Counted from the stretch's first letter, positions 25,767 through 58,437 are shown. The stretch: DNA of 64,000 nucleotides from an uncultured Pseudomonadales bacterium (GCA_964620965.1 CAZUHV010000001.1:85839-149838), one strand, 5' to 3'. The notes: generated by a model from the letters alone, not told the origin. A program made the numbers and translations.

Positions 25767-25797
25767 AAAAAGGGGCGTTATTACTAACGCCCCTTTT
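25767..25797. terminator. bidirectional rho-independent terminator
   Basis: Perfect 9-bp stem GGGGCGTTA/TAACGCCCC with a 4-nt loop, flanked by an A-run upstream and a T4 run downstream, between convergent genes. Confidence 0.7.
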
Positions 25798-25842
25798 CAC
25801 ATTATGCTACAAAAATTTTGAAACTAACGGCCGCGCTTAGGA

Positions 25843-34151: not shown

Positions 34152-34225
34152 GGCCCCATCGTCTAGCGGTTAGGACACCAGGTTCTCATCCTGGTAACCA
34201 GAGTTCGATTCTCTGTGGGGTCACC
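34152..34225 (+). tRNA. tRNA-Glu (anticodon CUC)
   Basis: Acceptor GGCCCCA/TGGGGTC. D arm TCGTCTAGCGGTTAGGACA. Anticodon stem CCAGG/CCTGG with loop TTCTCAT. T arm AGAGTTCGATTCTCT. Discriminator A then CC encoded. Confidence 0.8.
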
Positions 34226-35743
34226 TAAAGCAACACCCTGTGTATTAAAGTTAAATAATGATTGATACATAGGGTTTATTTCAGGGTTCAATGTTCCATT
34301 AAAGTCATATGTGACACCTTTGGGAAAGATTGAACCAAATAAAGCTTTTATCTGAGGTACGGTCGATTTTTTGTACGTAGCTCCTAAATCACTCAAAGTT
34401 TCTTTTATAAAAGCTGTTAGCTTGTTGATATCATATTTTTCAAGCGTTGAGTCTGCTTTGGCAACATGAGCTTTCTGTAGTTTATTCTCTATTAATGCGT
34501 TTTGTTCCATGAATATTTCATCGGTATACACACCCATCATGTTTTTTTGCACCAACACTTTTCTCATATCTTTGAGTCTTTGAATTTCATCATCTGCTAC
34601 GTTTTTGGCTTTCTTTACATTGGCAAGCCTCCTTTCATATTCTTCAACTACATACTGTGTAAATAACTCAATACATTCTTTACTTGGTGAAATGGATCTC
34701 AACAATCGAACCACTTCTTCATCTAACTGTTCAGCTCTAATAGAAGCGGCCTGACATTTAGTAGAACATCGGTAGTATGGATACTTTTTACTTCTACCTT
34801 TACTCCAACCAGCAGTTATTCCTTTGCCACACTCAGAACACTTAACAATCCTTCTTAACGGAAATGTTTTATTATTTCTAACTCGTTTTGTATTTACTAC
34901 AGGTTTAAAAACTCTTCTACCATCTAAAGCATCCTGAACTTTATAGAACTGTTCTAATGAAATCATTGGCCTGTGTTGACCTTGGACTTCTTCTTTATAA
35001 GTATCTGACGTCAAAATTCCTGCATAAAATTTATTACGAAGCATTCGTTGAACGGTAGGCACCTTTAATTTTATTCTTTTGCCTTTATGAACAGTGTATA
35101 AGCCCAGCTCGTTCATGATTTTCGTTATTTCAATGAGGCTTTTGTTTCCAAGCGCCATCAAATCCCACGCCTGCACCATCTTGTCCCATGATTCTGGGTC
35201 TTCGATTGGAAATTTGTTAACATCCATCATGTACCCAAGTGGAGGTTTTCTTGTGATTAATCCAGACTTGAACCTTGCATACATGCCATTTCTTGTTCTC
35301 TCGCTGCGTACATCATTATCATGCTGAGCAAAACTGGCCATGATAGTTTCTAGCAGTGTATCTGTTGGAGACGTTCCTGTGGGTTCTGAGGCTGAAATTA
35401 GCTGTATATTATTGCTGATCAAGGTCTTTCTGATTGAAAGATAATCTGAAGTTTGTCGAGAAAGTCGATCTAGTCTGTAGATAATAACAGCACCAAGCGT
35501 TCTTTTATTTTTCTTGCAATAATGCAGTAACTCGACTAATTCTGGACGACCAGCTATAGTTTTGGCAGACTTACCTTCCTCACGAAATATTTTGATAACT
35601 TTCAAGCCTTTTCTAATAGCTTCTTTTCGACACAGTTCTTCTTGAGTATCTAATGAAAAATTATCAACTTGCTCTTCGGTTGAAACTCTGAGGTAAATAA
35701 TTGCATCAGTTTTAGTAGTATTTTGAGCTTTATTTCTAGTCAT
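34163..35743 (-). CDS. large serine recombinase (resolvase catalytic domain, recombinase domain and zinc ribbon)
   Basis: IIYLRVSTEEQ catalytic Ser motif. Recombinase domain. Zinc ribbon CSECG...YYRCSTKC. C-terminal coiled coil. The last about 21 codons are encoded antisense to the 3' two-thirds of tRNA-Glu. Confidence 0.8.
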   Translation of the reverse strand: MTRNKAQNTTKTDAIIYLRVSTEEQVDNFSLDTQEELCRKEAIRKGLKVIKIFREEGKSAKTIAGRPELVELLHYCKKNKRTLGAVIIYRLDRLSRQTSDYLSIRKTLISNNIQLISASEPTGTSPTDTLLETIMASFAQHDNDVRSERTRNGMYARFKSGLITRKPPLGYMMDVNKFPIEDPESWDKMVQAWDLMALGNKSLIEITKIMNELGLYTVHKGKRIKLKVPTVQRMLRNKFYAGILTSDTYKEEVQGQHRPMISLEQFYKVQDALDGRRVFKPVVNTKRVRNNKTFPLRRIVKCSECGKGITAGWSKGRSKKYPYYRCSTKCQAASIRAEQLDEEVVRLLRSISPSKECIELFTQYVVEEYERRLANVKKAKNVADDEIQRLKDMRKVLVQKNMMGVYTDEIFMEQNALIENKLQKAHVAKADSTLEKYDINKLTAFIKETLSDLGATYKKSTVPQIKALFGSIFPKGVTYDFNGTLNPEINPMYQSLFNFNTQGVALGDPTENRTLVTRMRTWCPNR

Positions 35744-36071: not shown

Positions 36072-38660
36072 ATGGCTACTGATTTAAACCAAATACTCTC
36101 ATACTTTCCTGCCACAGTAATTCCATCAATCAACTGGTCTGTTCTTTATTTTTCCCTCAGCATTTTTTTCATTTTTCTTGTTTCACTCTTCTTAGCTTTT
36201 CAGCTCATTCGGCTTGCCTTGTTATATAGACTTCACACTGCAAAACATGTCTATTTAGAAATTAAGCCACTCAAAAAGACAGAGCTTAATCCATATTCTA
36301 CCGAGCAACTCTTTAATCTCTTTCATAGCATTACCAATCAAAGGTCTTTTATTGAGAGAATATTTAGAGTTACAAAAAGTATTAGCCTGGAGATTGTCTC
36401 CACCAAGGCCGATGGTATTCGCTATGTGATTCGAGCACCTCAGTCTTTATCAGGACTTATCAAAAATAGCTTGCTGTCATATCTGCCAGGAATTCAGATC
36501 AACAAAACCGCTGAGTATCTACAGAAAAGTGAAAATAGTTTTACCACACAACTAAAACTTGCCAAACACTTTGCTTTCCCTCTAAAGGCTCATGAAAGTT
36601 TAGATAAAAATGACCCTATCGCGTACTTAACTGGGGCTATGACTAAACTCAAGGAAAACGAGTTACTTGCCTATCAAATTGTTATCAGCCCTGTTTCAAA
36701 ATCAAAACTTCCTGAAGTTAAACGACTCCAAAAACTCATCAAGAGTAAACAAGACTTAACTGCCGAAATTGCCCATGCACATTCAGGTGCTTGGTTGTAT
36801 CTGACAATTTCTTACGCACTACAAATCTTACTTTTACCACTTGGTTTATTAGTGTTCCTAGCTACCGATGGTAGAGATGGGCCATTATTACCACTGCCTA
36901 AAATTCTAAAAGGCAAGAAATCAAGTAATGCCTACCAGAGTGAAATTGAAAAGCTAGTTAAAAAGAAAATTGATCAGCCTTTATACAAGGCTTCAATCAG
37001 AGTGCTTTCTCAATCAACAAATGAATATTGGGCTAAGAAAAAATCAAAAGGTTTTGTTTCAACGCTCAAGTCAATGAGTGGTACTCAATATCAACATCTT
37101 ACTAAAAGTCTTAAACTTCCAATCAAGCAACTTAACACTTTCAAGAACTTATTGTTTAGAAATCGGCTATTACTCCCTTTTAACAACACAATACTGTCTG
37201 CATCCGAACTTGGAGATTTATATCACTTCCCATTCACCAAGACGACAAAAACTGAAGATATGCAAAAGCAGTTTAGCAAGGATTTACCTGCACCGCTGTC
37301 ACTCAAAAAAGGTAATAAGCTTGATGTAGTATTTGCCCAAAATACGTATGGTAATTCCAGAACATTGATCGGCTTAACCGAGGATGAACGCAGAAGACAC
37401 ATGTACATCTTGGGAGCTACAGGTACGGGCAAATCAACCATGCTACTGAGCATGATCAACTCCGATATTCAAAACGGCAAAGGATTGGCAGTTGTTGATC
37501 CTCATGGAGATTTGATTGAACAAATTTTACATCTAATACCAAAAGAGCGGATCAAAGATGTTGTGTACTTTAACCCTGATGATATTGAGTATCCGATGGG
37601 AATCAACTTACTTGAGTTATCACAAGGCTTAGGTGAAGAAGCTGCATTAAGAGAAAAAGAATACATCTCTGAAAGCATTATTTCTTTGTTCCATAAAATC
37701 TATACCGAAAAATACTCGGGCCCAAGGATGGAGTATATCCTCAGAAACACCATTCATACTGCCTTTACTGTTCCTGGAGCAACATTATTTACTGTCTATA
37801 AATTACTAATCAATACTAAGTTTAGAAAATCAGTGGTTAAACAACTAACCGATGAAAACCTCAAAGACTTTTGGAAGTATGAGTTTGCCAAAGCTGGAGA
37901 CTACCAGAAAGTAAAAATGATCTCACCAATTACTAACAAAATTGGTCGTTTCCTGTTTTCTCCAACAGCTAAAAGAATCTTGGAGCAAGAAAAATCTACC
38001 ATAAACTTTGAAGAAATAATGAATGAAGGCAAGATCTTGCTTTGTAACTTATCCAAAGGAAAGCTTGGAGAAGATAACTCAAAAGTGTTTGGCGTGGTGG
38101 TTATGGCAAAACTACAGCTTGCTTCTCTAAGGCGTGCTCGAATGGCTGAGAAAGATAGAAAAGACTTCTACTTATATGTTGATGAATTCCAAAACTTTGC
38201 CACTCCCGCTTTTGCACAAATATTGTCTGAGGCTAGAAAGTATAGACTAGGGGCAATACTAGCCCATCAAACAACTTCACAGTTGGAAGACAAGTCATTA
38301 GTTAATGTGACACTGGCTAACACTGGAACAGTAATTTGCTTTAGAACTGCTAACCCAGAAGATGAGACACTCATCTTGCCTCAATTCAGGCCATATGTTG
38401 AACAAGGTGATATTGCTGGATTACCGTCATACAGATTCTTTATGAGACTAGGTGCTTTAAACCCTGAAGAGCCTTTTTCTGGGATTACTATGCCTGTTGA
38501 AATTAGGGAAAACAAAGGAAGAGTGAATGAGGTGATTGAGAATTCTAGAAAGCACTTTGCCATGAAATACGAGCCGTCAGCAACAACACAAGTTTTTCGT
38601 AGATATAAAAAGGTAAGTAAACCCAAATCTAAAACACAGGCATTTTCGACCTTGCCTTAG
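36072..38660 (+). CDS. type IV coupling protein-like ATPase (TraD/TrwB/VirD4 or TraG-D_C family, membrane-anchored)
   Basis: N-terminal TM helices. Walker A YILGATGTGKST. VVDPHGDL. Walker B YLYVDEFQNF. The ORF track starts at 36024, which lies inside the predicted promoter, so the ATG at 36072 (MATDLNQ) is preferred. Confidence 0.55.
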   Translation: MATDLNQILSYFPATVIPSINWSVLYFSLSIFFIFLVSLFLAFQLIRLALLYRLHTAKHVYLEIKPLKKTELNPYSTEQLFNLFHSITNQRSFIERIFRVTKSISLEIVSTKADGIRYVIRAPQSLSGLIKNSLLSYLPGIQINKTAEYLQKSENSFTTQLKLAKHFAFPLKAHESLDKNDPIAYLTGAMTKLKENELLAYQIVISPVSKSKLPEVKRLQKLIKSKQDLTAEIAHAHSGAWLYLTISYALQILLLPLGLLVFLATDGRDGPLLPLPKILKGKKSSNAYQSEIEKLVKKKIDQPLYKASIRVLSQSTNEYWAKKKSKGFVSTLKSMSGTQYQHLTKSLKLPIKQLNTFKNLLFRNRLLLPFNNTILSASELGDLYHFPFTKTTKTEDMQKQFSKDLPAPLSLKKGNKLDVVFAQNTYGNSRTLIGLTEDERRRHMYILGATGTGKSTMLLSMINSDIQNGKGLAVVDPHGDLIEQILHLIPKERIKDVVYFNPDDIEYPMGINLLELSQGLGEEAALREKEYISESIISLFHKIYTEKYSGPRMEYILRNTIHTAFTVPGATLFTVYKLLINTKFRKSVVKQLTDENLKDFWKYEFAKAGDYQKVKMISPITNKIGRFLFSPTAKRILEQEKSTINFEEIMNEGKILLCNLSKGKLGEDNSKVFGVVVMAKLQLASLRRARMAEKDRKDFYLYVDEFQNFATPAFAQILSEARKYRLGAILAHQTTSQLEDKSLVNVTLANTGTVICFRTANPEDETLILPQFRPYVEQGDIAGLPSYRFFMRLGALNPEEPFSGITMPVEIRENKGRVNEVIENSRKHFAMKYEPSATTQVFRRYKKVSKPKSKTQAFSTLP

Positions 38661-40083: not shown

Positions 40084-40262
40084 TGATTTAAACTTAAGAT
40101 TACTCTATTAAAAAACTGCCCCTACCGTCTAGGACAAAAATAAGATACTTTCCCAGATACGAATCAAAATATTCTTTACCTCTATTCCCTTATATAATAA
40201 GGGGAGGGAATGATACAATACCTCACAATACAGAAAATAGCCTGCCCATAGTAAATAACACT

Positions 40263-41030
40263 ATGGATACCATAACTCCTAAACAATTAGAAATCCTCAT
40301 ACTAATATATCGTTTCCGTTTCCTTAATCGTCACCAAATCCAAATACTCCTTAATCATAAAGACCCCAAACGAATAAACTCCTGGCTTAAAGATCTCAAT
40401 CAAAAAAATATCCTCGGTAGAATCTACTCAACTAAACTCAAAGAAAATACCAAACCAGCGATATACTACCTAGCTACCAAATCAAGAAAAATACTTCTTG
40501 AACAAGAAAATACTAACGAGAAAATTTTAAGAAGAGCCTACAGGGACAAAAATGCTTCTCAAAAATTAATAAATCACAGCATCTTTCTAGCCAATGTCTA
40601 TTTATTACTTAAAGAACAAGCCCTCAAAAACAAACAAGAACTTCATTTTTATACAAAAACTGATTTAGCAGAACACTACTACCTGCCATATAACCGACCA
40701 GATGTGTATATTTCCCTGAAAGGGAATGACTTAACAAAGCGTTATTTCCTAGAAATCATTGACAAAGGTACACCACGCTTTATGCTTCGAAAGAAAATCT
40801 CTCAATACATTGAGTACTTTGACGAAGGAACCTGGCAAAATAGGACGTTACATGAAAAACCATCACTTTTATTTATCTCTCCAAATCAAAATATCTACAA
40901 CTTCCTCACCAAACATATTGCTCAAGTTTTGGAGGAGGAGACTTCAGACTTACAATTTTTCCTAAGTCTGAAGTCAGAGATACAAGAAGCTGGCTTAACT
41001 GCCAACACTTGGCACCTCATCAGCGAGTAA
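40263..41030 (+). CDS. replication-relaxation family protein (PF13814-like, putative relaxase or mobilisation protein)
   Basis: N-terminal ITPKQLEILILIYRFRFLNRHQIQ winged-helix signature of the Replic_Relax family. Confidence 0.55.
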   Translation: MDTITPKQLEILILIYRFRFLNRHQIQILLNHKDPKRINSWLKDLNQKNILGRIYSTKLKENTKPAIYYLATKSRKILLEQENTNEKILRRAYRDKNASQKLINHSIFLANVYLLLKEQALKNKQELHFYTKTDLAEHYYLPYNRPDVYISLKGNDLTKRYFLEIIDKGTPRFMLRKKISQYIEYFDEGTWQNRTLHEKPSLLFISPNQNIYNFLTKHIAQVLEEETSDLQFFLSLKSEIQEAGLTANTWHLISE

Positions 41031-41780
41031 TACCGCCAGCACTTTTTCAACTGTTCCCATCGCCTTAGTTATGGCAATGAGTGGATCATCTGAATAGTGG
41101 CTAATATAGCTCCAAGCTTTCCCGCTAGAATCTCCCATGCCGTACAAGTCCATCAATACTGCAGATGTAAACTCGGCTACTGTTTCTTGTGTCTTGTTTT
41201 GTCCTTGCTTTAGCTCTCCATCTATTCGCGCGTGTATCGCATGGGCTAATTCATGAAAAAATACTCCTGCATCGTGTGTACCAAGTCTGATTTTGCTACC
41301 ATCAGTTTGACAATCACCAAGCTTATCAGGACTAATAGGTGCATACTCAACATCTATACCAAATTTTTTAGCCACATCTAGCAACGGAGGATATTCTACT
41401 GGCTCGTAGGTTGATACCATTTCATCACCCTCAGTGCATGAAGCTGCAAATACTGGAATAGGAGCAAACCCAACACAAATATTTTTTGTATCCTCTTCGT
41501 TTTCCTGATCAACCTTTGCGAGCTTGGGTCTGAGTATATACACTGCTTTACTACCTTTTTTGACCGTTCTGCCTTCTTTTTGCCACTGTTTATACCCTCG
41601 GCAATCAAGCTCATCTGACTGTAAAAAGGCTAGCACTTTATTTGATAAACTCCACTTATTAACTGGAGCATCACTAGCAACTTGAATGCGAGCTATTCTT
41701 GTCACAGTTGATAAGTCTCCAGTTTGAAATTTTTCTATTACTTTGTTGATGCTTGCCTGTGCTTTTGCTGATAGTTTCAT
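40995..41780 (-). CDS. ArdC-like antirestriction protein (ssDNA-binding ArdC-N plus zincin metalloprotease-like domain)
   Basis: KWSLSNKVL...RGYKQWQKEGRTVKKGSKAVYI matches the ArdC-N pattern. C-terminal HExxH (FHELAHAIH). Confidence 0.55.
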   Translation of the reverse strand: MKLSAKAQASINKVIEKFQTGDLSTVTRIARIQVASDAPVNKWSLSNKVLAFLQSDELDCRGYKQWQKEGRTVKKGSKAVYILRPKLAKVDQENEEDTKNICVGFAPIPVFAASCTEGDEMVSTYEPVEYPPLLDVAKKFGIDVEYAPISPDKLGDCQTDGSKIRLGTHDAGVFFHELAHAIHARIDGELKQGQNKTQETVAEFTSAVLMDLYGMGDSSGKAWSYISHYSDDPLIAITKAMGTVEKVLAVLLADEVPSVGS

Positions 41781-41952
41781 TTTTTCCCCCTTTAAAATTT
41801 TTTAATTGGAAGCAGGTTAGCCTGCTTCCATTACATGGAGCTTTAAAAGCGGGGTGAGTTTTGCAAGGGTCCCGACTTTCAGTCGAGACTTGCTATAGCC
41901 CTTGCAAAATGAGGGGTAAGACCCCTAATAACTACAGTCGTATAATTGAGAT

Positions 41953-42495
41953 ATGAAACAAAACACTAAACTTCCAAAAAACTATCCAACAAGTATCACT
42001 GAAGCATATGACTTAATTGTCAAAGCATTGCTTTCTGAAGATAAAGAACTAATAGCTAAAACCTGGAAATTCATTAATGAGGCAGAAGGTGATTGGGTTT
42101 GGGTAAGAGCAAAATTAATTACCGATTGTTATGAAGCTGCAGATGCAAAAGGAAGGGAAGAGTTTTGCTTGCTTGCATTAAGTGAGCATGTTAAAAATGG
42201 TCGAGCTTTGCCTCTAGCTGAGTTATTTACTGATCCCGATACAAACATTGATTATCTCGAATATCTAATGGGAGATATGACAATTTATCGACTGCCAATT
42301 GCAACTCCTGAGATAGGTAAATATGAATATCAAAAGGCATTAGAAAAAAAGTTTCTTGGAGATTTTATCGAAACACATTCTGTAGATGAAGTTACATACA
42401 CTCCACTAGATACTCAAGAGAAAATTGATGCATACAATAGCGGTGAGTATTATGAAAAGTTTGTGTATGGTAAAAGAAGAAAAAAGAAAAAATGA
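41953..42495 (+). CDS. hypothetical protein
   Basis: 180 aa with a Lys-rich C-terminus. TATAAT lies only 6 nt upstream of the ATG, suggesting a possible leaderless mRNA. Confidence 0.35.
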   Translation: MKQNTKLPKNYPTSITEAYDLIVKALLSEDKELIAKTWKFINEAEGDWVWVRAKLITDCYEAADAKGREEFCLLALSEHVKNGRALPLAELFTDPDTNIDYLEYLMGDMTIYRLPIATPEIGKYEYQKALEKKFLGDFIETHSVDEVTYTPLDTQEKIDAYNSGEYYEKFVYGKRRKKKK

Positions 42496-42535
42496 CGAAT
42501 TGCTCTGAGAAACTCTCAAAGCAATTAGGTATTAA
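42496..42535. repeat. 40-bp palindromic repeat, copy 1 (direct repeat of 48161..48200, 39/40 identical)
   Basis: CGAATTGCTCTGAGAAACTCTCAAAGCAATTAGGTATTAA. Contains a 13-bp-stem hairpin AATTGCTCTGAGA-aac-TCTCAAAGCAATT. Confidence 0.8.
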
Positions 42536-42592
42536 CTTTTACAGTCTAAAAATGTTTTTCTGCTGAAAGGTGAGTATTTTATAATTGAAGAA

Positions 42593-43090
42593 CTATTCTT
42601 CATTTAAAATCATTTCCATTAAGTACTGATCATAAAAACGATCGTCAATCTTAACTGCCATCTTTAGCTCACCTACTTTTTCAAAACCCACTGATTCATA
42701 TAAATTTAATGCTGAAATTTGGGTTGCTATAACTCCCAATTGTATTTTTTTTATCTCTGGCTTAGATTTTATCTCTTCAATAACAGTCAACAATAGTTTT
42801 TTCCCAATTCCTTTTCCTCTACATTCTGGGCTCACATAAACACGTACTATGTTTGCAATATGTGCCAATTTTTTCTTTTCCTCACAATAAAAACCAGCCA
42901 TACCGACAAGTTTTTCATCATCAGTAATTGCAAAAAACATATTTTTTATCCTGTCTTGCCACTCAGAATCTTCTTTTGAACTTATTTCTTCTTTGCTCCA
43001 CAAAAATGCTTGTGGTGAATTAGCAATGGACTCCATATAGAGATTTTTATAATCGAGCCATCTTGAAATTGGTAATTTAGTAATTTTCAT
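42593..43090 (-). CDS. GNAT family N-acetyltransferase
   Basis: Acetyl-CoA binding motif RGKGIGKKLL. Confidence 0.7.
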   Translation of the reverse strand: MKITKLPISRWLDYKNLYMESIANSPQAFLWSKEEISSKEDSEWQDRIKNMFFAITDDEKLVGMAGFYCEEKKKLAHIANIVRVYVSPECRGKGIGKKLLLTVIEEIKSKPEIKKIQLGVIATQISALNLYESVGFEKVGELKMAVKIDDRFYDQYLMEMILNEE

Positions 43091-43153
43091 TATTATTCAA
43101 ATTCTAACTGATTTTTACATTATTTCGCCACCATAAACAAGCTAAAAAATTAA

Positions 43154-44518
43154 CTATTTACTTCTGTAATATTCAAACATATCTTGATTCCAATCAGCGC
43201 TTATCAATGCCTCCCAGGCTGATTCTGCTTGACCAGGATGTTTAGTCTTCCAATCTGCTAACCAAGTTTGAATAATATATCTTTCATCCCTCTCAAGCAT
43301 TGCAGAAATTATTCTTCGTGCTAATAATTCTCTTGGTATCAATACACCTTGCAAGAGTAAGTTTGAAAATTCAATTTCTTCTAAACGACTTAAACCATTT
43401 GAATCAACCTTAACTGGAACTTCAACAAAAGTTTCATCATCAAGTCCTTTAATTGCACCTTTATTTGGAATACTCAATTGTAATTCTGCACCTGTATTAT
43501 TTTCCCTCGCATCAATATATGGGATAATATCCCACTCTGATCTATGCAACCCAAATGTTCTTGTAGCAGATTGAGAGGGACTAAAATTATTTACATTTTT
43601 AACAATGTTTGTTAACCACGAGAGATTCATATTATGTCCAATATCACCATCGAAACCTTGAGTAGGACCAAACCATTTCTCTTTAGTCTGAGGACTATCA
43701 GCATACCACCAAAATTCTGGCATAACACCTCTAACAGTATCTCCAACTGGAAAAAGACCATACCGCTTGTACATATCTAATGCTACCTTACTAATTTGAT
43801 AGTCCGCATGATGTGATACTGGGGTGTAAAATTTATAAAATGATTCTGCAGCAGTATTAATCCAATCGTCTAACATTGGATAAGCATTTTCTCCTTTATA
43901 AGTGAAATTTTTTAACCATATATTATGATTTATTCCAGCTACTTGTGAACTCACCAATCCAAAATCAGAAATACCTAATAAACCATATAACTTTTTTAAT
44001 TCATGATGTCCATGACAAATACCAATGGTATCAACTCCTGTAGCTTGATGAATAAGTCCACAGCCCTCTGGAACTGGATTTGCTGCCATAATCAATGTAG
44101 CATCTGGGCATCTATCTGCCATCGTTTCACCAACATCCATCATTAACTTAAGTTGTCTAAATGGTGTATTGATTCCTATACCTCTATAATATCCATGTTC
44201 TTCAAGTAAAGCTCTGTCTTGATCCATTGCATCTCTTCCACCAGCCAAAGCCGCTAAAATAACATAATCAACTGCTCCTCTCAACGGTTTTTCCCAAGAA
44301 GTTTCTGTTTGGAAAGTATAACCTGCATTCATTTCATCGTTATAAGATTGTGCAACTCTTGCAATAGCATTCAAACGTTCTTCATCTTTGTCCACTAAAA
44401 TAATGTTTGAATTATGTAACCCTGGTGTAATTATTAAATCTCTAATAATATCCAAAGAAAAAGTAGCACTTCCTGCGCCTATAACCTCAATATTGTTTCT
44501 TTTCATTTTTGTTCCCAA
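43154..44518 (-). CDS. glycoside hydrolase family 4 (NAD/Mn-dependent alpha-glucosidase / 6-phospho-glucosidase-like)
   Basis: N-terminal Rossmann IEVIGAGSATFS. Conserved CHGH region (IGICHGHHE). Size 454 aa. Confidence 0.6.
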   Translation of the reverse strand: MGTKMKRNNIEVIGAGSATFSLDIIRDLIITPGLHNSNIILVDKDEERLNAIARVAQSYNDEMNAGYTFQTETSWEKPLRGAVDYVILAALAGGRDAMDQDRALLEEHGYYRGIGINTPFRQLKLMMDVGETMADRCPDATLIMAANPVPEGCGLIHQATGVDTIGICHGHHELKKLYGLLGISDFGLVSSQVAGINHNIWLKNFTYKGENAYPMLDDWINTAAESFYKFYTPVSHHADYQISKVALDMYKRYGLFPVGDTVRGVMPEFWWYADSPQTKEKWFGPTQGFDGDIGHNMNLSWLTNIVKNVNNFSPSQSATRTFGLHRSEWDIIPYIDARENNTGAELQLSIPNKGAIKGLDDETFVEVPVKVDSNGLSRLEEIEFSNLLLQGVLIPRELLARRIISAMLERDERYIIQTWLADWKTKHPGQAESAWEALISADWNQDMFEYYRSK

Positions 44519-44598
44519 TCAAATTGATTTGCGGATAATTATATCATAAGGTACAATTATATATCTAAATATATCATTAGAAGTTTTGAAAGCTAACA

Positions 44599-45495
44599 AT
44601 GCCAAATAAAAGTAAAGAACACCATATAGACCACAGACACTATGATAACCTGTTAACAGAGGGAAGAAGAATGTTATGGCATGACCCAATATGGAGACAA
44701 GGACCAGAAAGGGCATATTCTGTTACTTCAGAAGCAATTGATATTTTCTTAGAGTATTCTGACTCCTTAGAGGTACCTTATATGGAAATTGGTTCTGGAC
44801 CTTATTCTCCTTTGGGAGTGTCAACAGTTATGTATCTAAATGGCGTTGAAAGTACAATTGCATTAGACATAACACAAGCGGATCTCCAAAGATCAGCCGA
44901 AGCTTTATATGATTTGTTGGCAGCTTGTGCACTTGAACCAGATAAGTGGAATATGTCTGGAAAACCAAATGAAGAATTCTTACAAAGAATAAGACAATTT
45001 AACATTCCTGCATTAAAAAAAGGTGATTTACTCACCGGAGTTTCTAGTACAAATTTAAGTTATGTTTTAGGTAGCTTAGAAAATATGCCTTTAACTAATG
45101 AGCAAGTTTCTCTAGTTTCCTCAAGAGCAACTCTGGAACATATTTTAAATTTCAAACAAGGCATGCAAGAATTATTTAGAGTTATGCAACACGGTGGTGT
45201 AGCATTCCATTCCATTGATTTAGTTGACCATCGAGTTTACAGAGAACCTGAAAAATATAATATGTGGTCATTCCTCACTGAGGAGAAAAATCCTATTAAC
45301 AAATGGTGCAACCGTCTTAGAGCGGACGAAATCTTGAAAATTGCAGAGAATGTAGGATTTGAAACACATGTTATTAAAACAGGAAAAAATGAGATTCCTC
45401 CTGAAGTGCTAAACAACCTACACCCACATTATGCAAAGATGGATTTAGAGGATCTTAAGACTACTAATCTTGTATGTGTGTTTTACAAGAAATAG
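44599..45495 (+). CDS. class I SAM-dependent methyltransferase-like protein
   Basis: EIGSGPYSPLG glycine-rich motif. Weak call. Confidence 0.4.
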   Translation: MPNKSKEHHIDHRHYDNLLTEGRRMLWHDPIWRQGPERAYSVTSEAIDIFLEYSDSLEVPYMEIGSGPYSPLGVSTVMYLNGVESTIALDITQADLQRSAEALYDLLAACALEPDKWNMSGKPNEEFLQRIRQFNIPALKKGDLLTGVSSTNLSYVLGSLENMPLTNEQVSLVSSRATLEHILNFKQGMQELFRVMQHGGVAFHSIDLVDHRVYREPEKYNMWSFLTEEKNPINKWCNRLRADEILKIAENVGFETHVIKTGKNEIPPEVLNNLHPHYAKMDLEDLKTTNLVCVFYKK

Positions 45496-45502
45496 TACAT
45501 CT

Positions 45503-46675
45503 ATGAATCCAAACGAATCGTTAATTTTAAGGCCAGCAATAAACAGAGAAATCACTAAAAGTAGAAAGTGGCTTGATGTCCCGAACCCTGATGTCTTGGG
45601 CATGGGTTTAGCAGATATGGATTTTCAAACAGCTCCTCCTGTGATTGAAGCAATTAAATTACGGGTTGAACATGGTATTTTTGGATATGACCAATTACCA
45701 GATTTTCTTTTTGAAACAATTATCAAAAGATTAGAATTATTACACAACTGGAAGGTTAAGCCAGAATGGATTCTTCTAACACCTGGAATTATTCCTAGCT
45801 TATATGCTACAAACAGAGCAATCGGAAGCTCTCATGATGATGTGATCACACTAGTACCTACTTACGGAGAAATAATGAATTCTGCTCTCAGAGCAAATCA
45901 AAATTTAATACAGGTTGAAATGAATTTTGATGGTAAAAACTGGGCAATAGATTTTGACAAGTTTGAAGAATCTATAACACCCAAGACGAAAGTTTTAAAT
46001 TTTTGCAACCCACATAATCCAATAGGTCATGTGTACAATGTCCAAGAACTAACTAAAATAGCAGAAATATGTAAAAGACATAACATAGTTATTTCTTCTG
46101 ACGAAGTCTATGCAGATTTAATATTAGATGAAAATAAAAGACATATTCCGATAGCTTCGATCGATGATCAAATAGCACAAAATACTATCACTCATTTATC
46201 AGCAAGTAAAACTTTTAATTTATCTGGATTAAGATTTTCATATACAATTATTCCCAATGAAGGTTTACGAGAAAAGTTTATTCAAAATACTTCAAGAATT
46301 TTACCTGGTGTTAACTTTTTAGGTGCAATAGCAACATTGGCAGCATATCAATATGGTGAAGAATGGAGAGGTGAACTGATAAATTATTTAAGAATCAATA
46401 GAGATTTAATCTATCAGTACTTTGATCCTATCCCCAATGTATCAGTTTCAAAAATTGAAGGAACATTTTTAGCATGGATAGACATAAGATCCTTAGGACT
46501 AAATAATCCCACTGATTTTTTCGCTACTCATGCTAAAGTACAGTTGCTTGATGGAAATGATTTTTCAGCACCAGGATTCATTAGGCTTAATTTTGGGTGT
46601 GAAACTAGCAAACTAGAACAAGCACTTATCAAAATTAAACAAGCAATTCTTACACATCAAGAGCGAATTCATTAA
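45503..46675 (+). CDS. PLP-dependent aminotransferase class I/II, MalY/PatB-type C-S lyase
   Basis: PLP-lysine motif LSASKTFNLSGLRFSY. The ORF track starts at 45470 and overlaps the methyltransferase gene, so the internal Met (MNPNES) is preferred. Confidence 0.7.
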   Translation: MNPNESLILRPAINREITKSRKWLDVPNPDVLGMGLADMDFQTAPPVIEAIKLRVEHGIFGYDQLPDFLFETIIKRLELLHNWKVKPEWILLTPGIIPSLYATNRAIGSSHDDVITLVPTYGEIMNSALRANQNLIQVEMNFDGKNWAIDFDKFEESITPKTKVLNFCNPHNPIGHVYNVQELTKIAEICKRHNIVISSDEVYADLILDENKRHIPIASIDDQIAQNTITHLSASKTFNLSGLRFSYTIIPNEGLREKFIQNTSRILPGVNFLGAIATLAAYQYGEEWRGELINYLRINRDLIYQYFDPIPNVSVSKIEGTFLAWIDIRSLGLNNPTDFFATHAKVQLLDGNDFSAPGFIRLNFGCETSKLEQALIKIKQAILTHQERIH

Positions 46676-47072
46676 TATAATTTTTTAGAAAATCTAGAAA
46701 TGGATTTGTATAATCAATTTCTGCCAATAATGTTTTTACATTTTCTTGAGAAAAAAATTTCAGCTGTTTCCCTTCACCAAGCTTAATTTTATCTTTCTGA
46801 GTATCAACTCTAGCTTGAAAAATTAGTGCATCCCAGTCTTCATTAAAAGCTAATGAACCAACCCTTACCACATCTGAAGCAACAAGTGATGTCTCCTCAA
46901 AAACTTCTCTTTCTGCGGCATTTTCTGGTAGTTCACCTGGTTCAATACCACCACCTACTAAACTCCATTGGTTAGTCATTAATGGAGTATTTCCATCTCT
47001 AAGATGCAAAAGAAATTCACCATTTTGATTGATAATTATTATACCTACTCCAACTTTTTTATTTTTTTTCAT
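46650..47072 (-). CDS. NUDIX hydrolase
   Basis: Nudix box GGGIEPGELPENAAEREVFEETSL. Confidence 0.75.
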   Translation of the reverse strand: MKKNKKVGVGIIIINQNGEFLLHLRDGNTPLMTNQWSLVGGGIEPGELPENAAEREVFEETSLVASDVVRVGSLAFNEDWDALIFQARVDTQKDKIKLGEGKQLKFFSQENVKTLLAEIDYTNPFLDFLKNYINEFALDV

Positions 47073-47119
47073 TCTGAATAATTATAACAAAATTTGACCT
47101 ATTATTTTTTTCTAAAAAA

Positions 47120-48064
47120 TTATTTACCACTTTTTTGAGATTGGATTGTCAATTTTATGCCTTCATTTATATCAACTTTAGGTGACCAACCCAATCTTTG
47201 ACCTGCCTTTTTGTTGTCTAAAACATTTCTTCTGACATCACCGGGCCTATCTGGACCAAAAATTGCTGGTTGTCCAGAGTTTAAAGCATTCTTAACAGCT
47301 TCAAATACCTCAAGATTTGATACCTCAACTCCAGAAGATATATTGAAGTAATCTGATTCTTTATGAATCATACTAAGCATTATTGCATCAACAAGATCAT
47401 GTACATAGAGATAATCTCTTGTATGTTTTCCGTCACCATTAATTATAGGAATTTCACCATTAAGCATTTTATTAATAAATATTGCTATAATACCTGCTTC
47501 TCCCTGAGAGTCTTGTCTAGGCCCATAAATATTTGCCAAACGTAAAGAAACCCAAATCATATTATATAAATTTCCAAAAAGCCTCATATAATATTCCCCT
47601 GATAATTTTGAAATATTATAAAAAGATGCTGGTTTTAAAATTTTTACATCTTCATCCGTAGGCAGCATTTCATCAGGTTGTTCACCATATAATGCACCTC
47701 CAGTGTTTGTATATATTATTCTTTCACCACCATTCTTCCTTGCTGCATCTAAAACATTAAACATCCCACGAACATTTACCTCCAAATCAAAACGAGGATC
47801 TTTCATTGAAGCTGGAACTTGATTTTGAGCCGCAGTGTGAACAACTACTTCAGGTTTAACTTTATCAAAAACTTTCTCTAAACTTTCCTCATCGCAAATA
47901 TCAACTTGATAAAACTTTGTACTATCATTTAAATTTTCGATTTTACCACTAACCAAATTATCAACAACAGTAACATTATAGCCCTCAGCTATACATCTAT
48001 CTTGAACATGAGATCCAATAAATCCAGCACCACCTGTTACTAAAATTTCCCGTCCTTTTTTCAT
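47120..48064 (-). CDS. NAD-dependent epimerase/dehydratase (UDP-glucose 4-epimerase-like)
   Basis: ILVTGGAGFIGSHV. Catalytic YxxxK (YNISKLSGE). The ORF track extends to 48184, but that extension overlaps the 40-bp repeat, so the start at MKKGREIL is preferred. Confidence 0.7.
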   Translation of the reverse strand: MKKGREILVTGGAGFIGSHVQDRCIAEGYNVTVVDNLVSGKIENLNDSTKFYQVDICDEESLEKVFDKVKPEVVVHTAAQNQVPASMKDPRFDLEVNVRGMFNVLDAARKNGGERIIYTNTGGALYGEQPDEMLPTDEDVKILKPASFYNISKLSGEYYMRLFGNLYNMIWVSLRLANIYGPRQDSQGEAGIIAIFINKMLNGEIPIINGDGKHTRDYLYVHDLVDAIMLSMIHKESDYFNISSGVEVSNLEVFEAVKNALNSGQPAIFGPDRPGDVRRNVLDNKKAGQRLGWSPKVDINEGIKLTIQSQKSGK

Positions 48065-48160
48065 TTTGACCCCTTTATTATTAAAATGATATAAATTGTT
48101 ATAGAAAGCAATTGTAATCGAGTTATATAAGATAATCAAGACTAATACAATAAAAAATTT

Positions 48161-48200
48161 CGAATTGCTCTGAGAAACTCTCAAAGCAATTAAGTATTAA
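48161..48200. repeat. 40-bp palindromic repeat, copy 2
   Basis: CGAATTGCTCTGAGAAACTCTCAAAGCAATTAAGTATTAA. On the minus strand the hairpin is followed by a T-run, so it may act as the terminator of 48190..48495. Confidence 0.8.
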
Positions 48201-48495
48201 AAATCAAATAATCATACAGAAACATAACTGCCCACAAACAAAAGATTGAGATAATCAAATAAGCAAGCTTTCTATTCCAACCCCGCTTCAACTGTGCCAA
48301 CGAGCCCAACAGAATTACTATCTCAAATGGATAAGTAATAAAATCACAGTAACTTCCACACCAATTCTTTTCTAAAATAACTACATCTGTTGCAAAGCTA
48401 TTTAAACCAAAACTTTGCTGCACATCTCTAACAATATGAAACACTGAGAAAAGTACTAACAAACCAAAAACATATTTGTATGCATTCTTTCTCAT
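48190..48495 (-). CDS. hypothetical small membrane protein
   Basis: Three TM helices. ATGA overlap with the upstream nuclease gene. Confidence 0.35.
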   Translation of the reverse strand: MRKNAYKYVFGLLVLFSVFHIVRDVQQSFGLNSFATDVVILEKNWCGSYCDFITYPFEIVILLGSLAQLKRGWNRKLAYLIISIFCLWAVMFLYDYLIFNT

Positions 48496-49997
48496 ATCAC
48501 TTTTTGTAACTCTTCCAATATCCTCACCATCGCAAAAGTATCAAGTGTGCAATAACGGCTCAAATCATCCATAATCATTGGTCGTTTTTCTCTGTTTTTA
48601 CCTTCCAAAACGGTTTGTGTCCACATTCTGCGAGCTAGTAATCCATCAGAAACATTAAGCTCTTTGTAGCTTAACTCAGGAGCTAATACTGGCATAACTT
48701 TCTTGACCGAGGCACTGCCAAAAAAATCTTTATCAAAAAACCACATCTTAGCAAATGGAGTCATCAAATCGTCTATGCGATCATTGAGATCTGCCAGGAA
48801 ATCTGCATACTCTGGAAACAGTTCTGCCATTCGATCATTACAACCTTTTTCATAACTCATGTTCCAAGTAAGCACAGTACCAGTTGTACCAATATCTTGC
48901 TTGAGCTGAGCTAATAATCCTGGCATTGGATCTGTTGCTTGGTTATGTAAATACTCTAAGTGTTTTAACTCTGCACCTGGGCTTTCAATTATGTGTAACG
49001 AATATTGGAATGGATAATCCTTGTATGGGCTATATCCATCAAATTGAGGAACTACTGTTGAGAGTGTTTCGTAATCAAAAAAGTAGAGTGGATACTGGAA
49101 CGTATCTAAAAAGGCTTTAATCTTGTCTTTATCAATAATTCGCTGACCAGTTTTAGTGGTTCTAATTTGAACTCGTTGTTTATCTCTTAAAGCTTGGTCT
49201 TCTGTCATCTCGTGAATTGAAGAAATGCCAAGATCTTCTAGATCCCCAAGTTGTTCTGGGCTTGGATAAGCAAGGTTGTAAATGGAGTAGGTGTCATATT
49301 CACCTTTGATGTTTTTATAAATCTCCATCCATTCTTCAAGCCACTGTGATGATTTGTTTGGAATACAAAGTTGATTAATAAATCTTGGTGAAACATCTGG
49401 CATAGTTCTATTTGCCAATACTTCAAAGGCCATATCTACTTGTAAAAGTGTGGTGCTCATCAAGGCGCGAACTTTATCTGTGATATCTGTTTTATCAACC
49501 AAACCAGCAGGATCAATTTCCCCCTCACGCACATATTCTTTGTTTGCATGCATCACAGCTACATTGCGAATTTTTAGTCCTGCTTTTTCTAGTACCAACA
49601 GTTGAAATGCTAAATCATATTCGTGTTCTGGTTTAGCTTTAGTGCTAGCTTTAATTTCAATTAAGTCAAAAGTTTCATCCGGATGTTTGAATAATACATC
49701 AGTAATACAAGTTAAATTATCAACTTCAAACCTGCCTTGAAAAATAACTTCTGCGCCTTGTTGTAAAGCTTGCTGAGTTCGAGCAGGTAGACTCAAATAC
49801 TCATCATAATTATTGAATCCAAGTCGAACCCCATTGGGAAATAGGCTTTCGGCATATTGCTCAAAGTCATGACCTGCATCAAACATGGCTTGCGTATTGT
49901 CATCAACTGGAGGTAATTTATTTTTGTCATACTTCTTTAGCCACAACCATGCAGGATGGCGAAGAAAGAGCATGTAGTCGGATTTACTTAATATCAT
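48492..49997 (-). CDS. dual-nuclease protein: N-terminal PD-(D/E)XK (Cas4/RecB-like) plus C-terminal DnaQ/RNase H-like exonuclease-like domain (DUF2779-like)
   Basis: D...FDLIEIKAS fits the PD-(D/E)XK core. C-terminal LYFFDYETL resembles DEDD exonuclease motif I. The start ATG overlaps the RloC-like stop (ATGA). Confidence 0.5.
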   Translation of the reverse strand: MILSKSDYMLFLRHPAWLWLKKYDKNKLPPVDDNTQAMFDAGHDFEQYAESLFPNGVRLGFNNYDEYLSLPARTQQALQQGAEVIFQGRFEVDNLTCITDVLFKHPDETFDLIEIKASTKAKPEHEYDLAFQLLVLEKAGLKIRNVAVMHANKEYVREGEIDPAGLVDKTDITDKVRALMSTTLLQVDMAFEVLANRTMPDVSPRFINQLCIPNKSSQWLEEWMEIYKNIKGEYDTYSIYNLAYPSPEQLGDLEDLGISSIHEMTEDQALRDKQRVQIRTTKTGQRIIDKDKIKAFLDTFQYPLYFFDYETLSTVVPQFDGYSPYKDYPFQYSLHIIESPGAELKHLEYLHNQATDPMPGLLAQLKQDIGTTGTVLTWNMSYEKGCNDRMAELFPEYADFLADLNDRIDDLMTPFAKMWFFDKDFFGSASVKKVMPVLAPELSYKELNVSDGLLARRMWTQTVLEGKNREKRPMIMDDLSRYCTLDTFAMVRILEELQKVI

Positions 49998-52213
49998 ATT
50001 TTCTCAAGCAAACTTAAAAAGTCGTCTAATTTCTGTATTTTTTCAGGTTCATTCAACTTCATGATTTCGTGTTGATCATGCATATGTTCATGCCAGTTAT
50101 TTTCTAAAATATCATCTTTAACCAAACACTTGTCACCAATTTTTTCTAGATATGCAGAAATACTCCCCTCAGAAAGAGTCTTTTCATCCAAAGAGAAATA
50201 ATACTTGTGTCTCAAAATTCTTTCCAAGCACTTACGTACCTTACCAATTGCTTCATCAACATTTCTATTGTTATCAACTGAATCTTTAATAAACTTTACG
50301 CTTTTGAAAAATTCTTCCTCAATAACGTTTTCCACATCACACTTTACTATGCTAGAGCCTGCAGAACCTGAGTTTTTAATTTGAAGAAATTTGGTTTCAT
50401 TTTTTGGTATTTTGCTTTGCAATCTAGCCAAAAAGCTATCATCATGAGTAAGTATAATTACCTGCTCTGGCTCTTCATTTGATTGATTTTTAATTTTGAC
50501 TATAGTCCTAACCAACGCGTCCTTGCGATTTGAATCTAAACTTGAAAAAGGATCGTCAAAGACAACAATTTTTTTGTTTAAAAATTTATCTGTTTGTAAT
50601 TTTGATATAAAAATTGCAATTGCCAACAATCTTCTATCGCTATCACTTAACGTATTCCCAAAGTAATATTTATCCTTAGGCTCAATGTCGTCCTGAGATC
50701 TTTTATTTGAAATAGGAACAACTTGACTGCCAAATGCAAATTCGTAGTCAACAAAATGTGATTTTGATCTAGTTAAGTTCGAGCGACTATCTAATTTCTG
50801 TATTGAGAACTCTGCCCTAAGTTCATTTTTCAATACTTTTTCAATTTCTTTTTGATTATCTACAATTGTTTTTTTTGTCTCCTGATTAATTTCGTCTCTT
50901 AGGTTTTTCACTTCCTTCTTCTTGTCTTTGATGAGTTTTTCTGCATCAAAATAGTCTTTTGTTAAACTCACTCCTTCTTTGCTATGCCTGTATTTAGATA
51001 GCTTTAACTTTTTTAACTGATTTAGTAAATTTCGATAATCTTGTTCAGAGAATTCCTGTTTAAGTATTGAATCAAATACAGGGTGAAGTTTTTTAATTTC
51101 AATCAAGAATAATTGAAATGGTTTATCTTTTGAGATTAAATCAATCGAATAGTTTAAATTCTTTAATTTTTTATCAATTTCTTTGTCTAGATCCGCTTTA
51201 TTTTCCAGTAACTCCTTCTTATTTAACAATTCATCACAGTTAATTCCTAGAGGGTTAAGTTTTGCTATTTCTGCTTCAGGATCAAATCGCAAAAAGTTTT
51301 CTCCCGCTGATTCAATTTCTTTTTGAACTTGTCTATACGTTGCGCCAAAAACGCTCTTAAAATCTTTTATTAAATCTTTTACAGGCTCTAAGTCTTGCCC
51401 ACAAAAAACACAGTTTTTAGACTCATCTTTTAAGATAGCAACACCTTCTGAAATAAAATTCTTAGATGCACTTGCGTCTTTCCAATGATTATGAATATGA
51501 TTTTCAATGCTTACTTCAGCTGAAGTATCTAACGATTTCTCCATTGCTAACTTAAAGTTCTCAAATTTTGACGCCAATGGGGAATGCTTAATCTGTTCCT
51601 TAATTGATGAAATATTATTTAGGCGTTTAATTTCTGTTTCTTTTTTTGAAATTTTGTCATCAACACTCTCTACTTTTTCTGCTTTAAGAAATTCCTCAAA
51701 AGTTCCCAGATCAACTTTTATATATTTATTTTTTACTTTGTCTCTATCACTTTCTAAATCTGCTTGTTCATTACGAAGCCTCTTGAGAGCAAGTACTTTA
51801 TCACCTATGTTTTCTCCTACAAATATTCCATGAAGTGAAGCTTTATGTTCAAAATCAATTTGATCTCCTAGATAAACGTAATTTTGAACAAAGTTACTAT
51901 CAAATACAACAATATTTGGATTACTCCAGTTACCGTTTGATAGAGTGGAATGTTTATTATTTTCATCCAAAATATCAATCTCAGAACTTTCTGAATATCC
52001 GAAAGTCTTTTTACCCTTCAACAATCCTTGATCAGAATTTTTTAAGGATCTAAATATCGTTGTCAAAGTGCTTTTGCCATAAGTGTTATGTCCAAAAATA
52101 ACAGTTCTTTTGAAAAAACGTAATTCATCATCTCCAGAACATGTAAATTGCTTGAACTTTCCAATTCCTTTGATTTTTATAATTTTACTAATCATTTTTT
52201 CCCTTACTACCAC
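49994..52213 (-). CDS. RloC/PrrC-like ABC-type ATPase with coiled-coil zinc-hook insert, putative restriction-linked anticodon nuclease
   Basis: Walker A FGHNTYGKSTL. Long Lys/Glu coiled coil containing CVFC (CxxC hook). D-loop/Walker B VVFDDPFSSLD. C-terminal R-x3-H (RILRH) and a His cluster. Co-operonic with hsdR. Alternative start at 52195 (MISKIIKIKG). Confidence 0.55.
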   Translation of the reverse strand: MVVREKMISKIIKIKGIGKFKQFTCSGDDELRFFKRTVIFGHNTYGKSTLTTIFRSLKNSDQGLLKGKKTFGYSESSEIDILDENNKHSTLSNGNWSNPNIVVFDSNFVQNYVYLGDQIDFEHKASLHGIFVGENIGDKVLALKRLRNEQADLESDRDKVKNKYIKVDLGTFEEFLKAEKVESVDDKISKKETEIKRLNNISSIKEQIKHSPLASKFENFKLAMEKSLDTSAEVSIENHIHNHWKDASASKNFISEGVAILKDESKNCVFCGQDLEPVKDLIKDFKSVFGATYRQVQKEIESAGENFLRFDPEAEIAKLNPLGINCDELLNKKELLENKADLDKEIDKKLKNLNYSIDLISKDKPFQLFLIEIKKLHPVFDSILKQEFSEQDYRNLLNQLKKLKLSKYRHSKEGVSLTKDYFDAEKLIKDKKKEVKNLRDEINQETKKTIVDNQKEIEKVLKNELRAEFSIQKLDSRSNLTRSKSHFVDYEFAFGSQVVPISNKRSQDDIEPKDKYYFGNTLSDSDRRLLAIAIFISKLQTDKFLNKKIVVFDDPFSSLDSNRKDALVRTIVKIKNQSNEEPEQVIILTHDDSFLARLQSKIPKNETKFLQIKNSGSAGSSIVKCDVENVIEEEFFKSVKFIKDSVDNNRNVDEAIGKVRKCLERILRHKYYFSLDEKTLSEGSISAYLEKIGDKCLVKDDILENNWHEHMHDQHEIMKLNEPEKIQKLDDFLSLLEKI

Positions 52214-57965: not shown

Positions 57966-58079
57966 CTGATACAATTTACAACCAAAAGTAAAGCGTTATA
58001 ACAAGAGCTGCCCACTAGTGAGGTAGCTTTTTTTGTAACACCTGCCCAACAAACTTTAATTAGTGAAAGGGTCGTGTTT

Positions 58080-58412: not shown

Positions 58413-58437
58413 TTGATTAGAAAAGGAATACGTATTG

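Follow-up and report, generated by a model that had tools for sequence, protein, structure and literature searches.

A near-invariant 40-nt hairpin, possibly a sequence-constrained terminator, at gene ends in the accessory region of a putative conjugative element of Patescibacteria

The window analysed here is a 64,000-nt stretch of DNA (GCA_964620965.1, CAZUHV010000001.1:85839-149838), in which two copies of a 40-nt palindromic element, called E, bracket six genes. We give about even chances to the reading that E is a family-specific, sequence-constrained putative terminator, a near-invariant hairpin at the gene ends of the accessory region of a putative integrative conjugative element. Judged from sequence, termination or 3'-end formation on the minus strand is the best-supported predicted function of E because of its position, a stem that is perfect on one strand, the enrichment of U-tracts after it and a terminator-then-promoter layout. 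We infer that the near-invariance of E reflects an added sequence-specific constraint beyond termination. The two copies, E1 and E2, and the features next to them are as follows.

42496-42535, minus strand: E1, the 40-nt element with the minus-strand reading TTAATACCTAATTGCTTTGAGAGTTTCTCAGAGCAATTCG (covariance model R1, 71.1 bits)
42498-42526, minus strand: hairpin of E1, 13 bp including one G.U, with a 3-nt loop
42484-42495, minus strand: U-rich tract after E1 (A6 at 42487-42492 on the plus strand)
48161-48200, minus strand: E2, 39/40 identical to E1, with its hairpin at 48163-48191 (R1, 73.7 bits)
48149-48160, minus strand: U-tract after E2 (A6 at 48152-48157 on the plus strand)
48111-48139, minus strand: promoter-like site TTGATT-17-TACAAT, next to E2 on its downstream side and ahead of the epimerase start (48064)

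The initial annotation described a pair of 40-bp direct repeats, and this was borne out. The window has exactly two matches to the 32-nt core CGAATTGCTCTGAGAAACTCTCAAAGCAATTA, 42496-42527 and 48161-48192, and each is on the plus strand; the chance expectation is 0 (100 shuffles, up to 3 mismatches tolerated). Over 40 nt the copies show a single difference, G/A at 42528 versus 48193 (39/40), and the similarity reaches 52 nt with 92% identity (42484-42535 versus 48149-48200). On self-comparison of the region from 34 to 64 kb, this pair was the sole significant direct repeat. Neither a sequence profile nor the covariance model with filters off revealed a third or degenerate copy in the window, and half-site or tail motifs of E did not exceed chance elsewhere in it, including near the tRNA-Glu/recombinase junction. 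The repeat can also be traced in short-read assemblies. Logan contigs of the same strain from three runs (L005, L006, L007, L008, L016 and L017; L numbers denote the collected sequences) all break inside E1 and E2, and one 5,693-nt Logan contig is exactly the E2-to-E1 block. Thus, a repeat of 40-52 nt is long enough to fragment k-mer assemblies.

The hairpin with a 13-bp stem, noted earlier for each copy, proved correct, with one difference between the strands. Stem pair 8 is a C.A mismatch on the plus strand and a G.U wobble on the minus strand; therefore, the stem is perfect solely as minus-strand RNA. The minus-strand RNAs of E1 and E2 fold with energies of -17.4 and -16.2 kcal/mol (z about -3.1 and -3.3). 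When folded as single-stranded DNA, the two strands are about equally stable. The G.U wobble is present in all 9 distinct copies of E. Eleven of the 13 stem pairs never vary across the copies, and the loop and most of the 9-nt conserved asymmetric tail, TTAATACYT, are likewise invariant between elements whose proteins share just 62-69% identity. The two changes in the copy of locus L013 form one compensatory pair, U-A to C-G, by which pairing or dyad symmetry is kept. Since 11 of 13 pairs never vary and there is one compensatory pair only, covariation statistics are uninformative for this hairpin. The edges of conservation are sharp and lie at identical positions whatever the flanks. A search of Rfam at gathering and relaxed thresholds gave nothing meaningful, blastn against PLSDB gave chance matches only (E = 4), and no description of the element was found in Rfam, plasmid sequences or the searchable literature.

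In a scan of 38-53 kb with a terminator consensus, E2 ranked first and E1 second, with 13 pairs and a 3-nt loop, followed by CGTCATTTTT and CGAAATTTTT. After each hairpin, the minus strand carries CG, 2-3 nt and a T6 run. The bases of the E1 U-tract also encode the Lys-rich C-terminus and the TGA stop codon of a convergent open reading frame (ORF) of 180 aa. Read in the minus-strand sense, E stands directly 3' of a gene in every context with a known upstream gene, and the genes immediately upstream are those of GNAT, of proteins of 101, 123 and 154 aa, of FtsX and of Ham1p. A run of at least five T within 15 nt after E occurs in 7 of 10 contexts versus a background of 5.1% (binomial ~1e-7). 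Four of these seven contexts have unrelated flanks, and the count becomes 5 of 8 if homologous E1 contexts are merged. Together, E2 and the promoter-like site make up an intergenic layout of a terminator-like site and then a promoter. The proposal that the second copy doubles as a terminator of the 101-aa ORF (48190..48495) is supported, as a predicted function, by its position and by the stop codon inside the element. The initial annotation had also offered REP-like (repetitive extragenic palindromic) terminator repeats as an explanation. The terminator part of this idea stands on the hairpin, the U-tract, the position at gene 3' ends and the top two sites of the scan; the REP family part does not, as 64 kb hold just 2 copies, each element has 0-2, and each of the three matching metagenome-assembled genomes (MAGs) of species representatives gave one strict copy.

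According to the terminator reading, minus-strand RNA of E would fold into the 13-bp hairpin, usually followed by a U-tract, and would serve as an intrinsic terminator hairpin or as a 3'-end stabiliser. E2 would close the unit of restriction-modification (R-M), AAA_13, DUF2779 and 101-aa genes, and the epimerase promoter would follow. E1 would close the GH4-GNAT unit, facing the convergent 180-aa ORF. The direct orientation of E1 and E2 is explained by the fact that both transcription units lie on the same strand. The pair is best read as paralogous copies of an element that is present 0-2 times per relative.

To follow E among relatives, we used metagenome assemblies with about 25 distinct related loci (about 300 kb). 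Collections were scanned with a strict E pattern, which misses variants such as the L013 and L055 copies, and further loci were collected via homologues of ArdC, GNAT and the 180-aa ORF. The strict pattern was found at 3 loci in the 185,579 species-representative genomes scanned, one in each of three MAGs of the candidate phyla radiation (CPR) type, in 1 JGI metagenome contig and in 0 contigs of IMG/VR. The dozens of copies genome-wide that the initial annotation named as the mark of a generic repeat were not seen in the 185,579-genome scan. In six other lineages of the element family, E is identical at 38-40 of 40 positions. It is 40/40 in L003, where ArdC is 62% identical as a protein and its gene region 69% identical as nucleotides, and 38/40 in L013, where ArdC is 69% identical. 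There are 0-2 copies per element, the orientation of E relative to the backbone is constant in all lineages, and E is found in at least 8 different flank contexts. The main contexts are listed below in map order; nc-element denotes a structured non-coding element next to the ArdC-like gene.

Window: ArdC and nc-element, 180-aa ORF (plus strand), E1, GNAT, GH4, methyltransferase, PLP (pyridoxal phosphate) enzyme, Nudix and epimerase, E2, 101-aa ORF, DUF2779, AAA_13 and R-M
L025: nc-element, 1.4 kb, 180-aa ORF, E1, the same six genes (~80% nt), E2, 123-aa, 156-aa and 154-aa genes, GmrSD, DUF2779; L002 has the same junction sequence
L055: 180-aa ORF, E1, GNAT, DUF1611, AMP-binding/citrate-synthase-like, ACPS and aminotransferase, E2, 154-aa and 49-aa genes, GmrSD
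L019 (= L001, the closest relative, backbone 89-93% nt identity): to the left of E, nc-element and then Nudix, epimerase, radical SAM and epimerase; to the right, GNAT, DUF2726, 123-aa gene, GmrSD, DUF2779, Gabija-like pair, HsdR
L013: nc-element, 179-aa winged helix-turn-helix protein, E, Ham1p, further on DUF2779 and MmeI
L003: nc-element, 60 nt, E, FtsX, ABC
L009: nc-element, 5.7 kb of other genes, E at the contig end

With the sequence profile and the covariance model (filters off), E was found neither in L010 (ArdC 87%), L015 (69%) and L033-L041 (64%) nor in the chromosomal GNAT homologues L029-L032. It was also not found in 13 viral ArdC-like loci, which are distant (at most 44% identity).

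Like intrinsic terminators, E has a hairpin right after stop codons, in most contexts with a U-tract next, and one copy lies at a convergent junction and the other between co-directional units with a promoter next. Several observations weigh against E being a terminator and nothing more. There is no clear U-tract after E in 3 of the 10 contexts (L019, L013 and L009), and where the U-tract is present, it begins 2-9 nt past the AT-rich stem base, which is a non-canonical geometry. A canonical bidirectional terminator lies at 25765-25800 in the housekeeping part of the window, with an A-run, a GC-rich 15-bp stem (GGGGCGTTA..TAACGCCCC) and a T-run. This clearest canonical terminator of the host is unlike E in that its GC-rich stem is directly flanked by the A/T runs. 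Unlike the sequence of intrinsic terminators, that of E is itself near-invariant, and termination alone leaves the conserved stem, loop and tail unexplained, given that the proteins are just 62-69% identical. Finally, several homology breakpoints lie exactly at the edges of E, which is not predicted for a pure terminator. Because termination leaves the invariance, the sharp edges and these breakpoints unexplained, an extra constraint probably acts on E. Its source may be a partner, either protein or RNA, or else repeated homogenisation or exchange between elements; in module shuffling, E may give diverged elements a short identical stretch at which to recombine.

The genes around and between the copies are as follows.

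41953-42495, plus strand: 180-aa ORF, convergent on E1, with its TGA abutting E1 and a basic C-terminal tail
42593-43090, minus strand: GNAT acetyltransferase, inside the bracket
43154-44506, minus strand: GH4, bracketed cargo
44599-45495, plus strand: methyltransferase, bracketed cargo
45503-46675, plus strand: PLP enzyme with the class I/II aminotransferase fold, bracketed cargo
46650-47072, minus strand: Nudix, bracketed cargo
47120-48064, minus strand: NAD-epimerase, bracketed cargo, with its true start at 48064
48190-48495, minus strand: 101-aa hydrophobic ORF whose 3' end runs into E2, with the TAA stop at 48190-48192 inside E2

The six bracketed genes (GNAT, GH4, methyltransferase, PLP enzyme, Nudix and NAD-epimerase) have the identities first assigned to them. 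The minus-strand run HsdM-HsdS-HsdR-AAA_13-DUF2779-101aa (57816 down to 48190) ends with the 101-aa ORF. The family of the 180-aa protein comprises about 20 clusters with 55-94% identity and a basic KRRKKKK tail. Its AlphaFold2 model, which is confident (pLDDT 85), has four helices and then a beta-rich domain; Pfam, PDB sequences and Foldseek gave no match, and there is no recognisable fold. The junction of the 180-aa gene with E1 is conserved in L002 and L055, and in L055 the ORF runs into E and terminates at a TGA inside it.

Comparison of the loci shows where their homology breaks. The layout of E, cargo and E occurs in three lineages with two different cargos, namely six genes in the window and L025 and five genes in L055. 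GNAT with its 3' untranslated region (UTR) and E1 (42496-43114) forms a 619-nt module common to L019, L025 and L055, whose upstream neighbours differ. Between the window and L019, this module is kept, and other sequence takes the place of 43115-48506, which holds the genes from GH4 to the epimerase, E2 and the 101-aa ORF; one of the eight breakpoints falls at an edge of E (42496, the CG edge of E1), and seven of the eight lie elsewhere. L019 has a single E, but with different neighbours at both outer sides. The homology of the window with L025 ends at 48204, 4 nt outside E2. With L055, E2 is a 50-nt homology island between unrelated flanks, with breakpoints at both its edges. The segment that varies between L025 and L055 runs from E2 at one end to the GNAT promoter at the other. 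In the synteny check, the same block of E, six genes and E is found in L025, but L019 keeps only GNAT and E1. Because L019 keeps GNAT and E1 and replaces GH4 through the 101-aa ORF, the E1/E2 bracket, as judged from these alignments, does not appear to be the unit of gain and loss.

Copies within one genome also resemble each other. Both L055 copies share a derived loop, AGC, and all others have AAC. In L025 the repeat is longer, 90 nt with 95.6% identity (4727-4816 and 10499-10588), because the last 51 nt of the 123-aa gene, which encode ...KSKQNPVAYINC*, are duplicated together with E downstream of GNAT. A fragment of the 123-aa gene is also found in L055 (10586-10640), which is without the 123-aa gene. 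By its sequence, this fragment is a putative fossil left by duplication or recombination involving E and one of its flanks. The L055 loop and the L025 repeat point to copy-to-copy homogenisation or duplication within a genome.

The initial annotation regarded the copies as possible att-like scars of an insertion, an idea that the comparisons do not support in that form. That E is a site-specific recombination site (attC-, pdif- or res-like), with E1 and E2 as junctions of an integrated cassette, seems unlikely to us, although several observations speak for it. They are the layout of E, cargo and E in three lineages with different cargos, the homology breaks at the CG edge of E1 (L019), 4 nt outside E2 (L025) and around the E2 island (L055), the sharp edges, fixed orientation and near-invariance of E amid the unrelated flanks of L003 and L013, and its sporadic distribution among relatives. 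However, the gains and losses relative to L019 do not match the bracket, and E does not stand at both ends of the segments that vary: GNAT, within the bracket, is conserved, and the 101-aa ORF, beyond it, varies. No recombinase was found in or next to the bracketed block, which consists of metabolic enzymes only, and no tyrosine recombinase was found in the window or annotated related loci. The search for a cognate enzyme gave none; the nearest recombinase is the large serine recombinase of the element (34163..35743), a homologue of which occurs in E-less L033 too. The 13+3+13 symmetry of E fits neither tyrosine-recombinase cores (6-8 bp spacer) nor a 2-bp serine crossover on the dyad. The cargo comprises several genes that do not all point the same way. 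No empty site in which the 180-aa gene, E and the 101-aa or 123-aa gene adjoin, and no circle junction, was observed among the ~25 distinct loci.

The known systems of this kind share features with E. As in integrons, E is palindromic, has one orientation and lies 3' of variable cargo, GNAT with E resembles a portable module, and some homology breakpoints coincide with E. Unlike in integrons, no IntI or attI was found, E is 40 nt without the R''-L''/L'-R' layout of attC, and there are at most two sites and no array. At the 5' edge of the GNAT module we found no core motif of the integron type, only a promoter-like conserved stretch. The pdif (XerC/D) modules of Acinetobacter plasmids are also bracketed by short palindromes and move between related elements as accessory modules. 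In contrast to E (13-3-13 with a tail, in direct orientation), pdif sites have an 11-6-11 structure and alternating orientation, and E has no dif similarity. A dedicated site-specific system for E may exist, but no enzyme, empty site or two-sided boundaries were found among the loci compared. We regard as similarly doubtful the broader idea that E is the joint of an undescribed cassette-exchange system of Patescibacteria, in which modules that end in E or are flanked by it would be excised and then inserted at other copies of E. Candidate enzymes for such an exchange would be the serine recombinase of the element, its PD-(D/E)XK MobC relaxase and the co-occurring Cas4-like DUF2779 nuclease. 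This would explain the sharp breakpoints at E edges, the recurrent layout of E, cargo and E with different cargos, the sporadic distribution and the near-identity of the copies.

We consider it rather improbable that E is mainly the binding site of a sequence-specific protein, either a dimeric regulator on the 29-bp palindrome or an RNA partner of the FinO/ProQ-like or RNase III type, with termination as a secondary role. The invariance of E far exceeds the needs of a hairpin, and the double change in L013 preserves the dyad or the pairing; both points favour this explanation. However, no candidate binder was identified. The 180-aa ORF next to E1 shows no fold that could be recognised, and L003, L013 and L019 do not have it. 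Nor would an operator be expected to lie at gene 3' ends with an enrichment of U-tracts after it.

A mobile origin of E, as a small palindrome of the REP/RAYT or IS200/IS605-end type that is recognised by a HUH enzyme and has landed at gene ends, is very improbable. As in REP sequences and BIMEs (bacterial interspersed mosaic elements), E is an imperfect palindrome of ~35-40 nt with one conserved mismatch and an asymmetric tail, it lies at gene 3' ends amid unrelated flanks, and a role as a terminator or mRNA stabiliser is possible. But E occurs in 1-2 copies per genome, where REP repeats number tens to hundreds, and among about 60 ORFs of the window there is no RAYT or other Y1/HUH transposase (PF01797-type). 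There are no target-site duplications. Moreover, E is confined to the cargo region of one element family with constant orientation to the backbone, and it is shared between species. A genome-wide REP family was rejected on the strict-pattern counts and the null profile and covariance-model searches.

An origin of transfer (oriT), or a nic-type site of the MobC relaxase with direct copies placed like T-DNA borders around the cargo, has very little probability. The element encodes a relaxase and a coupling protein, and E is a hairpin with a tail, usually one per element and in fixed orientation; as with such borders, direct repeats of ~25-40 nt stand around cargo in an element with a relaxase gene. 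However, L015, L033 and L010 have the same backbone type, L015 and L033 with Replic_Relax and the coupling protein, and no E in 7-10 kb, and E lies 1.5 to more than 7 kb from the relaxase gene, with cargo between them. The inverted-repeat region at 40110-40262, which adjoins the relaxase gene and is also present in E-less L015, is a better oriT or promoter candidate. In the oriT of the MobC relaxase TraX, the binding site (five direct repeats) lies ~70-120 bp from nic (review, PMC12857230), and E is without such flanking direct repeats. That the pair is a neutral, functionless leftover of duplication is hardly credible: the repeat does spill slightly into its flanks (52 nt in the window, 90 nt in L025), but identity of 38-40/40 across lineages with 62-69% ArdC, at least 8 flank contexts, constant orientation and U-tract enrichment all argue against it. 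On the whole, E is most like an intrinsic terminator in predicted function, REP-like in architecture and attC/pdif-like in its place at module boundaries, but it lacks defining features of each of the REP, attC and pdif families.

E belongs to an element whose genes begin in the second half of the window. The first 34 kb are housekeeping (tRNA synthetase, RecJ, SecDF, RRF and cell-envelope sugar enzymes), and from 34.15 kb onward the gene content shifts to mobile-element genes. The main features are as follows.

34152-34225, plus strand: tRNA-Glu(CTC), conserved left backbone
34163-35743, minus strand: large serine recombinase, the only recombinase in the window, 7 kb from the bracketed block
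36072-38660, plus strand: VirD4/TrwB-like coupling protein, left backbone
40263-41030, plus strand: MobC-type relaxase (Replic_Relax, PF13814), left backbone
40995-41780, minus strand: ArdC-like gene, left backbone
about 41795-41935, plus strand: structured non-coding element between the ArdC-like gene and the variable cargo
58074-63253, plus strand: type IV secretion system (T4SS) genes, with two VirB2/T4SS pilins, PrgI-like, TraC-like and VirB4-like ATPase, and M23 peptidase

Between E2 and the T4SS, the gene order is 101-aa ORF, Cas4-like DUF2779, AAA_13 (PADLOC candidate PDC-S06) and type I R-M. The T4SS genes close the variable region at the right and have the same order in L033, where the gene order from the recombinase through the T4SS recurs. 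Replic_Relax (PF13814) belongs to the MobC relaxase superfamily with the PD-(D/E)XK fold (PMC5357655, PMC3424549). Streptococcal class 8 integrative mobilizable elements (IMEs) are a known case in which serine integrase, VirD4 and MobC occur as a trio (PMC5357655). Among the relaxases detected in Patescibacteria, the MOBC class is the commonest, and T4SS loci of Patescibacteria have recently been catalogued, mostly without recognisable relaxases (PMC12102498). Because this gene trio is known from IMEs, MOBC occurs in Patescibacteria and the gene order recurs in L033, we take this part of the window for a putative integrative conjugative element, with an accessory region at ~41.9-58 kb, in a bacterium of the Patescibacteria (CPR). 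The tRNA-Glu(CTC) on the plus strand overlaps the last ~20 codons of the recombinase ORF on the minus strand. Since the housekeeping genes end there, this overlap is the likely left junction of the integrated element, and the right end lies beyond the window.

The left backbone holds three further conserved sequences. A non-coding element of ~140 nt is conserved immediately upstream of the ArdC-like gene in 8 loci: the window (41795-41935, plus strand), L019 (14598-14745), L003 (1028-1172), L010 (7262-7405), L002 (1-150), L015, L013 and L009. Its consensus has three helices, 4 compensatory pairs and an invariant AGCGGGGTGA, it has no meaningful match in Rfam at gathering and relaxed thresholds, and its last hairpin is directly followed by the variable cargo. 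Possible roles are those of a 5' leader, a small RNA or a single-strand promoter as in plasmid leading regions. The intergenic region 40110-40262 (plus strand), directly upstream of Replic_Relax, is strongly conserved in the window, L019, L013 and L015. Its inverted repeat surrounds a TATAAT-like box (TTTACCTCTATTCCCTTATATAATAAGGGGAGGGAATGATACAATA), a motif TGCCCC..GCTAGGACA lies upstream, and the region is a candidate oriT or autoregulated relaxase promoter. At 40940-40975, within the 3' end of the relaxase ORF, there is a perfect 14-bp hairpin (GACTTCAGACTTAC...GTAAGTCTGAAGTC-type), 20 nt past the stop codon of the convergent ArdC-like gene and conserved in L019 (15564-15599). It is probably an ArdC terminator embedded in the coding sequence.

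The defence content is swapped among relatives between the conserved anchors DUF2779 and HsdR, as seen on comparing 48492-57816 of the window with L019 (1-9365), L025 (1-4777) and L055 (1-9000 and 17616-20558). The window has AAA_13/PDC-S06, L019 has an AAA_15-OLD and UvrD (Gabija-like) pair and GmrSD, and L025 and L055 have GmrSD. L055 also carries a DISARM-like set (DUF499, DUF3780, DUF1156 and PLD-SNF2 helicase) upstream of the 180-aa gene.

Almost nothing is known about gene regulation and exchange in Patescibacteria (CPR). The locus described here shows a putative conjugative-element family with a mosaic region of cargo and defence genes that is punctuated by a near-invariant 40-nt hairpin. 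If E is only a terminator, it would be useful as a landmark for annotation and would exemplify a sequence-constrained terminator that different species have in common. If E is truly a recombination joint, cassettes would be exchanged by a new route in an uncultured phylum, and the sequence of E would be a simple tag for mobile cargo in CPR metagenomes.

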